Shown here one piece after another: positions 8,400 to 9,470 of a stretch of DNA of 45,103 nt. A program made the translations under genes and the position numbers. The notes under the pieces are model-generated. The model saw nothing but the letters and a program-made list of their open reading frames with translations, had not been told where the DNA came from and ran no database searches. Origin of the DNA: a virus (lineage: Duplodnaviria > Heunggongvirae > Uroviricota > Caudoviricetes); IMG/VR virus record IMGVR_UViG_2734482790_000002; one strand, 5' to 3'. Numbering within the stretch: the first letter of the stretch is position 1; each line of letters opens with the position of its first letter.

Positions 8400-9470
8400 A
8401 TGGCTAACGCCTGGCTCAGATTATGGCATGACATGCCTAATGACCCTAAGTGGCGAACAATTGCCAGGGTGTCAGGGCAGCCAATTGCAACAGTGATGGC
8501 AGTGTATATCCACCTCCTGGTGAGCGCGTCACGAAATGTCACGCGAGGTCACATTGATGTCACGACAGAAGATTTGGCAAGTGCGCTCGACGTGACAGAA
8601 GAGGTAATTGATTCAATTTTGCAGACGATGCAGGGGCGGGTACTTGATGGTGATTTAATCACTGGATGGGAAAAACGCCAGGTGCTTAAAGAGGACAACG
8701 GCAATATTTCGCAAACCGCAAAATCTCCTGCAGAGCGCAAGAGGGCGCAGCGAGAGAGGGAAAGAAAGCGGGAACAAAATGGCGATTGTCACGGCGCGTC
8801 ACGAAATGTCACGCACATGTCACGACGAGTCACGACAGATAAAGATACAGATAAAGATACAGATCAAGAAGATCAAAACACTATGGTCCATGGCATAAAA
8901 AACGCCACGAACCAGGCAGGGGATGTTCAGACCGTCAATCCTGGTCAGCCAGCAGGCACGACACCGGAAGCCGATTCAGCGTATGCGCTGAAAGCCGATT
9001 CGGGCGCTGTGCAGCAGGTGATGACCGCAAGGCCGGAGCAATCACACCAACTGCAGCAGCCTGAAGCCGATTCCGCCATTCAGCGGGAAGCCGATCGGGT
9101 AGTCCCGGAAAACACCGGGCAGTCTGTGGGACGAGTGGATTATCCGGATGTGTTCGAACAGGTCTGGCGGGAGTACCCGTTGCGTGCCGGAGCAAACCCG
9201 AAGAAATCCGCTTTCAGTGCCTGGAAGGCCAGATTACGCGAGGGGGTGCCACCAGAGGCCATGCTGGATGGCGTGAGGCGTTACGCAAGATACTTGGCGG
9301 CTACCGGGAAAACGGGAACGGAATTTGTTCAGCGAGCGACGACGTTTTTTGGACCGGACCGGAATTTTGAGAACCCCTGGTTGCTCCCGGTAAGCGGCAC
9401 GAACAACCAGCGTTGTGTGAATCATATTTCTGAACCGGACACCGAAATTCCACCAGGGTTCAGGGGATAA
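8400..9470 (+). CDS. replication initiator (O-like, iteron-binding) protein
   Basis: about 356 aa from the ATG with gaggtga SD (track ORF begins at GTG 8394); the gene contains in-frame iterons (peptide repeats ASRNVTRGHIDVTT and ASRNVTHMSRRVTT) and an AT-rich tandem (DKDTDKDTDQEDQ). Confidence 0.65.
   Translation: MANAWLRLWHDMPNDPKWRTIARVSGQPIATVMAVYIHLLVSASRNVTRGHIDVTTEDLASALDVTEEVIDSILQTMQGRVLDGDLITGWEKRQVLKEDNGNISQTAKSPAERKRAQRERERKREQNGDCHGASRNVTHMSRRVTTDKDTDKDTDQEDQNTMVHGIKNATNQAGDVQTVNPGQPAGTTPEADSAYALKADSGAVQQVMTARPEQSHQLQQPEADSAIQREADRVVPENTGQSVGRVDYPDVFEQVWREYPLRAGANPKKSAFSAWKARLREGVPPEAMLDGVRRYARYLAATGKTGTEFVQRATTFFGPDRNFENPWLLPVSGTNNQRCVNHISEPDTEIPPGFRG
8528..8876. other. candidate origin of replication: two clusters of GTCACG iterons at ~10-bp spacing plus an AT-rich tandem repeat
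   Basis: GTCACG/A at about 8528, 8538, 8548, 8559 and 8788, 8798, 8808, 8819, 8829; shared core cgtcacgaaatgtcacgc; followed by gataaagataca x2 then gatcaagaagatcaa. Confidence 0.6.

Follow-up and report, generated by a model that had tools for sequence, protein, structure and literature searches.

A candidate replication origin with two iteron arrays inside the initiator gene of a lambda-like Escherichia coli prophage

The IMG/VR record IMGVR_UViG_2734482790_000002, a stretch of 45,103 nucleotides (nt) referred to here as the window, is a lambda-like E. coli prophage that extends from the integrase through to the tail fibre. Its replication initiator gene contains two arrays of short direct repeats (iterons) and a purine-rich A+T tract, which together form a candidate replication origin, and its product ends in a tail resembling the C-terminus of the host protein DnaT. 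The elements concerned are the following (aa, amino acids):

8400-9470, + strand: replication initiator gene, 356 aa, identified by its match to phrog_3729 and its PGAP name, with domain boundaries from AlphaFold2
8528-8564, + strand: iteron array 1, with GTCACG at 8528, 8538 and 8559 and GTCACA at 8548, spaced by 10, 10 and 11 bp
8591-8596, - strand: inverted tenth copy of the hexamer, reading CGTGAC on the + strand, 27 bp past array 1
8746-8779, + strand: almost pure polypurine stretch GCGAGAGAGGGAAAGAAAGCGGGAACAAAA, just 5' of array 2, coding for the basic peptide RERERKREQ
8788-8834, + strand: iteron array 2, with five GTCACG copies at 8788, 8798, 8808, 8819 and 8829, spaced by 10, 10, 11 and 10 bp
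8835-8884, + strand: purine-rich A+T tract, a candidate DNA-unwinding element, consisting of ACAGATAAAGAT twice and then CAGATCAAGAAGATCAAAAC
9432-9467, + strand: DnaT-like tail NHISEPDTEIPPGFRG, almost the same as the end of E. coli DnaT

Iteron arrays and A+T tract within the initiator gene

The original prediction for this locus, which was made from the sequence alone, described nine GTCACG or GTCACA repeats in two clusters at a spacing of one helical turn, followed by an AT-rich tandem. The nine + strand copies are indeed present as groups of four and five, 10-11 bp apart, and only the inverted tenth copy at 8591-8596 had been overlooked. The tandem of ACAGATAAAGAT is also found, at 8835-8858 (the register originally given, gataaagataca, corresponds to 8838-8861), and it opens the GC minimum of the initiator gene, which reaches 0.275 at 8840-8879 with an A>T skew of 0.59. 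Over its 50 nt the tract is 72% A+T and 70% purine, and it contains two GATC sites (8862 and 8871). Around the polypurine stretch, at 8740-8779, the AT skew amounts to 1.0 and the GC skew to 0.55.

All repeats and the tract are located inside the open reading frame (ORF) 8400-9470. The hexamer is read in all three frames (as SR, VT or GH) because a period of 10-11 bp is not a multiple of three, and the peptide ASRNVT occurs twice (aa 43-48 and aa 133-138) because a unit of two iterons, 19 nt long, returns 270 nt (90 codons) downstream. The earlier view that the repeats lie in frame and give rise to repeated peptide motifs is right as to the ORF and the recurrence of ASRNVT and needs qualifying as to the frame.

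Across the whole window GTCACR is not enriched (40 occurrences against 45.8 expected), and thus the signal consists in local clustering and phasing. We scored clustering as the number of same-hexamer pairs at 9-12 or 19-23 bp, i.e., at about one or two helical turns. The initiator gene scored 6, against a maximum of 2 in 2000 codon shuffles, and the only segments of 1071 nt in the 45 kb that scored at least 3 were those overlapping the initiator locus. The arrays are far beyond chance, and the same score revealed no other iteron-like cluster in the 45 kb.

Relatives were sought with the N-terminal domain of the initiator (N-domain) as query, in phage records by tblastn and in one genome per species by a combined pattern and tblastn scan. 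Five phage loci and 59 genomic loci were recovered, with identities of 28-99%. Aeromonas, Pseudomonas and Ralstonia phages have relatives of the initiator, as do Pseudomonas, Bordetella, Burkholderia and sphingomonad prophages. Under a strict criterion applied to 63 loci, window included, both arrays are present in 51, at gene nt about 120-240 and about 300-510, and the second array alone in three, so that array 2 is found in 54/63. The other nine lack a clear array, and at least two of these nine carry looser GTAACG repeats. Lack of conservation in relatives, which the original prediction had named as an argument against itself, is thus not what was found. Furthermore, the positions of the arrays stay fixed while the core hexamer shifts with the lineage of the N-domain: most gamma- and beta-proteobacterial members have GTCACG, others have GTAACG, GTGACG or GCAACG, and the most distant relatives have CGAACG/GAACGC.

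A codon alignment of the N-domain was prepared for 23 relatives with the GTCACG core (Aeromonas, Pseudomonas, Bordetella, Serratia, Chromobacterium and others). Of the spacings between their iterons, 95 are of 10 bp and 28 of 11 bp, and the bases flanking the 6-bp core hold little information. Third-codon positions match the window in 95% of cases inside the hexamers and in 43% elsewhere in the N-domain. Since the hexamer is read in three frames and the synonymous sites inside it are frozen, the arrays are under selection at the level of the DNA and not of the peptide. The inverted copy occurs at the matching offset in many relatives and becomes CGTTGC where the iteron is GCAACG. The same six bases at 8591-8596 also code for the conserved DVT of the helix-turn-helix, and selection on the protein may be the source of their conservation. 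Finally, a purine-rich A+T tract of the AGATAAAG or AGAGAAG type directly follows the last array 2 iteron in 25/25 relatives inspected, whatever the type of iteron.

Many relatives also carry, 10-30 nt past the A+T tract, a CCCCC(C)-n4-6-CCCCC(C)-n2-4-GGGGG motif coding for PPxPP..G (loci L004, L011, L015, L018, L029, L033, L064 and L066). It is missing from the window, and the hairpin it could form is no stabler than random. A lambda-like palindrome 3' of the tract was considered for the window itself and rejected, as the only hairpin there, at 8884-8914, has little stability (-4.5 kcal/mol, z -0.7).

The initiator protein and its DnaT-like tail

The initiator matches phrog_3729 ('replication initiation protein') over its full length (residues 1-356 of 356, E 1.3e-257). 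The PGAP annotation of a 97%-identical prophage calls it 'phage replisome organizer', and its 90% cluster, which comprises 5786 member sequences, bears the same name. Weak PHROG matches to 'replisome organizer' families were also obtained (phrog_4880, 6e-6; phrog_5968, 2e-4), and no Pfam O-family match was found for the protein. An AlphaFold2 model built from a 26-sequence alignment gives a confident N-domain (aa 1-97) of helices, a helix-turn-helix and a beta wing, which we provisionally regard as winged-helix-like. In the model it is followed by a basic helix (aa 110-126), a disordered linker (aa 128-245) and a helical C-domain (aa 246-331), after which comes the DnaT-like tail (aa 345-356).

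Array 1 codes for the end of helix 3 and the loop at aa 43-55 (ASRNVTRGHIDVT), before the helix-turn-helix. Among relatives the number of array 1 iterons ranges from 3 to about 10, and the length of the N-domain loop rises in step. The putative DNA-binding domain appears to carry an expandable insert whose sequence is dictated by the DNA. At locus L066 the loop reads SAVPVCDAPVTPCDVTCDGGDADVTPVTRGD, the expanded array 1 of L066 and L067 occupying gene nt 134-240, and further variants in iteron number are L010 and P0003. Array 2 (aa 130-145) and the A+T tract code for part of the predicted disordered linker. With one array in a length-variable loop and the other, along with the tract, in a disordered segment, the DNA elements sit where the protein can accommodate a sequence dictated by something else, which is also known of ori-lambda in its own initiator (PMC7466680).

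A 302-aa in-frame deletion variant of the initiator (P0020) was observed in four contigs, one of them a 5.1-Mb chromosome. It has lost part of the linker together with array 2 and the A+T tract, so that CHGAS is joined directly to PEADS. In lambda O, the classical ori-minus deletions are likewise in frame, and prophages with the variant may be immobilised ones.

The iteron-bearing N-domain is combined, in different relatives, with varied C-terminal halves, and the C-terminal half tracks the partner encoded downstream, which can be a DnaC/IstB-type loader, a lambda-P-type loader, a DnaB-type helicase or a primase-helicase. This pattern fits a modular protein, in which the N-domain would be the origin-binding module and the C-domain the partner-recruiting module.

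The DnaT-like tail was absent from the original prediction. The initiator ends in SEPDTEIPPGFRG, compared with SEPDSQIPPGFRG in E. coli DnaT. Its tail aligns with the DnaT chains 6aep, 2ru8 and 9zbt (...VSEPDSQIPPGFRG) and with positions 156-179 of the NCBIfam DnaT model NF002770, the motif SEPDxxIPPGFRG being identical. The alignment is limited to the last 21-24 residues. A match to the whole of DnaT, with its N-domain, acidic linker and three-helix ssDNA-binding domain, failed (NF002770, 18 bits against a cutoff of 201), neither a DnaT N-domain nor an acidic linker was found, and the DnaT-like domain PF17948 is not reached by the window protein, although sister initiators with the same N-domain do reach it. 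Judged from these comparisons, the initiator is not a DnaT orthologue.

The distribution of the tail was studied by scanning viral contigs for the exact motif D-x-x-I-P-x-G-F-R-G followed by a stop codon, which yielded at least 120 matches and 97 evaluable loci. Copies of the tail were recorded at 9432-9467 of the window, in L074 (34213-35067), in L070 (1333-2151) and in L075-L194. Among the matches listed, nearly all stand at the end of an initiator-like ORF, and the N-domains of these ORFs are of at least five unrelated types. A DnaC-type loader comes next in 55 of the 97 evaluable loci listed; 42 have no loader, mostly with DUF977 at +40, and in none does a P-type loader, DnaB-type helicase or primase-helicase come next. 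Conversely, the N-domain relatives that are paired with P, DnaB or a primase-helicase never have the tail. It is also missing from L028, a betaproteobacterial member paired with DnaC. Phage phiP27 has its own DnaC as well as its own DnaB, and the match there to the C-domain of the window ends before the tail, at residue 109 of the 121 in the query. The initiators of LLS and SfV, which have unrelated N-domains and no loader, end in IPEGFRG and IPAGFRG, respectively. From this co-occurrence we infer a coupling role for the tail, which would link the initiator to a DnaC-type loader, either the phage's or the host's.

Gene neighbourhood and the missing loader

From 7898 to 28070 the window is colinear, at 97% identity, with the RefSeq-annotated prophage of strain RM11911, and the origin-like segment belongs to the early right operon. 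The gene order is S24 repressor (- strand), P22-Cro-like gene, YdaT-like gene, initiator, DUF1627 gene and DUF977/Ren-like gene. The features that surround the initiator gene are:

6946-7584, - strand: S24 repressor gene
7618-7647, + strand: predicted pR-like promoter, TTGACT-18-TAAACT (consensus scan, 9/12 matches), 5' of the cro, ydaT-like and initiator genes
7903-8328: YdaT-like gene
9516-10310: DUF1627 gene
10321-10749: DUF977/Ren-like gene

Transcripts from the predicted pR-like promoter would pass through the origin. The immunity region has been exchanged at 6819-7898, the S24/LexA-type repressor and P22-Cro-like gene of the window standing where RM11911 has RacR and YdaS; the RM11911 prophage (L008) is otherwise 96-97% identical, and homology restarts exactly at the ydaT-like gene. 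According to the annotation of the colinear RefSeq prophage, the early right region also encodes a RelE/ParE-ParD toxin-antitoxin pair (12590-13152, - strand), and a tRNA-Gly lies at about 18400-18471, 5' of the lysis genes.

No gene for a helicase loader or a helicase was found in the window, and the 97%-identical annotated prophage lists neither. The original prediction that neither P nor a DnaC-type loader follows the initiator is borne out, since the next genes encode DUF1627 and DUF977 proteins and gave no loader-family match. It is equally correct that the next gene product is without a Walker A motif: among the ORFs of at least 100 aa in the window, only the terminase has one. The search for a loader domain in this 265-aa protein, which had been proposed as a check, returned DUF1627 and two weak winged-helix matches only. 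DUF1627 was therefore discarded as a hidden loader, having no loader-family, Walker A, PDB or PADLOC defence match. It was also discarded as a substitute for the loader, as it is present after a true DnaC in the sister prophage ETEC1703 and absent from the plaque-forming phage Tritos.

The initiator gene, at 98% nucleotide identity, occurs in three contexts. In ETEC1703 the next gene encodes a protein closely homologous to E. coli DnaC over the full length (E 2.5e-75 to 6qel), and DUF1627 and DUF977 come after it; in the window the initiator gene is followed by DUF1627 and DUF977, and in Tritos and others by DUF977 alone. The breakpoints between contexts fall exactly at gene ends, and homology stops at the initiator stop codon (module coordinates: window, 9516-10310 and 10321-10749; L068, 3080-5048; L001, 7118-7540). 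As Tritos came from a plaque on MG1655 and was propagated (PMC9928086), lytic growth requires neither a phage loader nor DUF1627. In addition, a 2025 survey reported that 34 of 314 enterobacterial lambdoid phages encode an O-like protein only and described their replication as 'not yet understood'; LLS, which grows lytically, belongs to this 'O only' class (PMC12315714).

Proposed origin, alternatives and known systems

We consider it probable that the segment is the replication origin of the phage and is bound by the product of its own gene. The comparison with relatives supports this reading well, and iterons and an A+T tract inside an initiator gene match ori-lambda in order and position. 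On the evidence of the sequence, it is a variant of the ori-within-initiator arrangement that has another family of initiator, short direct iterons in phase with the helix, two arrays whose layout is conserved and a loader-less module in which the initiator bears a DnaT tail.

On induction, transcription from the pR-like promoter would supply the 356-aa initiator, whose winged-helix-like N-domain may bind the GTCACG hexamers as monomers, head to tail and on one face of the helix. Array 2, with its five sites, and the adjoining A+T tract would constitute the core origin, where the duplex would open. Array 1 (four direct copies and one inverted), about 230 bp upstream, would be an auxiliary site; it may raise the local concentration of initiator or loop or wrap the intervening DNA, and it could also feed back on transcription of the initiator gene. 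The IPPGFRG tail would then couple the open origin to loading of the host helicase, through DnaB-DnaC directly or through PriA. The repeats, their conservation as DNA, their change with the lineage of the initiator, the domain layout, the lack of a loader and the tail with its gene contexts are what was observed; that the initiator binds, that the tract unwinds, that the origin fires and how the helicase is loaded are inferred.

A more specific and more tentative proposal is that the IPxGFRG tail is a portable DnaT C-terminus, which may allow initiators with unrelated origin-binding domains to pass an opened origin to a DnaC-type loader, namely to host DnaB-DnaC where the phage has no loader, and that it is combined here with a bipartite origin, one array of which lies in an expandable loop of the domain that reads it. 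For the window, loading via the tail and host DnaC is a serious possibility, to which we give somewhat less than even chances.

Several observations weigh against these proposals. Our literature search found no description of the origin of this initiator family, and GTCACG iterons returned nothing relevant. The fold of the N-domain is weakly supported, the nearest structures being winged-helix regulators with a best Foldseek E of 0.57 and the Pfam match being HTH_Crp_2 at E 0.068. Specificity residues were sought by mutual information and the attempt was abandoned, since the top columns were the iteron-encoded ones and the signal is confounded by phylogeny. No DnaA boxes are present at 8300-9400 besides a one-mismatch site at 9416, and the total for the window is at chance level; similarly, the best hairpin after the tract in 25 relatives is no stabler than random segments of their own loci (mean z -0.42). 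As for the tail, its link with the loader relies on classification by BLASTP against a few reference loaders, and many near-identical E. coli prophages are included in the scan. The structural literature on DnaT that we surveyed does not state a function for the DnaT tail, and a 2026 cryo-electron microscopy study suggests the DnaT N-domain as the recruiter of DnaB/DnaC. Finally, this particular prophage could be replication-defective.

The alternative that survives best keeps the origin as described and has the helicase loaded through the PriA-dependent primosome, with the C-domain and tail docking PriA/PriB at the opened tract. In the structure of the preprimosome the C-terminal domain of DnaT is docked to PriA and is filamentous on single-stranded DNA (PMC13377028), and it is with the end of this domain that the window tail aligns. 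However, the tail co-occurs with phage-encoded DnaC-type loaders and, among the matches listed, with no other loader type, which points to DnaC, and the rest of the C-domain has no match to the DnaT-like Pfam family. We thus regard the PriA route as rather unlikely.

It could also be argued that the arrays are mainly regulatory operators, by which the initiator or another phage or host protein controls transcription or copy number, and that replication starts elsewhere. Array 1 is located early in the gene and includes an inverted copy, and control iterons of plasmids form comparable separated arrays. However, an A+T purine tract, which is a feature of origins, abuts array 2 in every relative inspected, the layout matches that of ori-lambda, and the 45 kb hold no second iteron-like cluster. 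Regulation and origin function are, moreover, compatible with each other. A purely regulatory role for the arrays is therefore improbable in our opinion.

We give marginally less credence to an origin that is such by descent and dead here, i.e., a relic that lost its loader gene and no longer replicates autonomously. The sister prophage with the same initiator retains an adjacent DnaC homologue, its homology to the window ends exactly at the initiator stop codon, and in-frame deletions without array 2 and the tract do exist (P0020). Nevertheless, Tritos has the same initiator and no loader and still forms plaques on MG1655 and can be propagated, and a loader is absent at 15 of 16 evaluable window-type initiators among the viral-contig matches listed. 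Lytic growth also occurs within the 'O only' class of 34/314 lambdoid phages, as in LLS (PMC12315714), and in the window all iterons and the reading frame are intact.

That the repeats have no function as DNA and merely result from a repetitive peptide or from slippage during replication is suggested by the recurrence of ASRNVT and VTT in the protein, but is effectively refuted by the use of all three frames, the frozen synonymous sites (95% against 43%) and the persistence of the arrays across proteobacterial classes, with the encoded peptide changing along with the hexamer.

The initiator family is very common in prophages of E. coli and Shigella. The proposed origin map, with its core hexamer, phasing, two arrays and unwinding tract, offers a rule for annotating origins in this family, and lineage-specific iterons could predict replication incompatibility among prophages. 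The analysis also provides a hypothesis for helicase loading in O-only lambdoid phages, an open question of the survey cited above (PMC12315714), and hints at a role for the DnaT C-terminal tail. If the portable tail is real, it would explain how 'O-only' lambdoid phages replicate and would give the conserved tail of DnaT a function.

Among known systems, ori-lambda is one of the closest. It too lies within the initiator gene, in the part that codes for the interdomain linker (PMC7466680), and an A-rich, purine-skewed tract comes 3' of its iterons. The two origins are also similarly placed in their genes, with lambda iterons at nt 349-433 of O in the annotated record and array 2 at nt 389-435 here. 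Both genes belong to a pR operon, after cro and cII-like genes, and have a Ren-like gene downstream. The differences are equally clear. The earlier remark that the initiator is unlike lambda O at its N-terminus holds over the whole length, for which no homology was detected (hhalign probability 0.5%, E 0.12, 26-sequence alignment). The lambda iterons are four 19-bp inverted repeats that serve as sites for O dimers, compared with direct 6-bp cores every 10-11 bp here, and the window has a second array where the gene codes for the DNA-binding domain. A P gene is missing, and the C-terminus is DnaT-like and not P-binding. The description of the locus as a classic lambdoid ori-within-O is consequently accurate in order and position, while the type of iteron and the presence of two arrays are not lambda-like.

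The organizer G38P of phage SPP1 binds repeated boxes beside an A+T-rich region and a second, distant site, oriR. Its oriL is located in gene 38 and thus, as here, inside the organizer gene (PMC5615212), and both proteins carry the 'replisome organizer' label (PGAP, PHROG). However, the hhalign probability with G38P is 0.2% (for a profile of 6 sequences only), the initiator has no match to Pfam Phage_rep_org_N at E <= 0.1, and SPP1 encodes its own loader and helicase. The satellite phage P4 has, in ori and crr, short direct octamer iterons in two separated clusters that are both bound by the initiator. It differs in that its alpha protein is a primase-helicase, and crr lies kilobases away and not in the coding sequence of the DNA-binding domain.

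DopC also lacks an accompanying loader or helicase gene and combines an O-like N-domain with the DnaT C-terminal motif (PMC5509034); we found no iterons in dopC. The LLS class resembles the window in having an initiator without a loader or helicase gene (PMC12315714). LLS O and SfV orf39 share the IPxGFRG ending with the window initiator; they differ in their N-domains and therefore in their origins. A link between tail and loader is not mentioned in the literature surveyed on O-only phages and DopC (PMC12315714, PMC5509034), nor does the paper on the replication region of the Stx-phage 'Eru' mention DnaT, iterons or DUF1627. A parallel to the pairing of tail and loader is found in the host itself, as the many tailed initiators that are followed by a DnaC homologue mirror the gene order of the E. 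coli dnaT-dnaC operon (PMC5778457).

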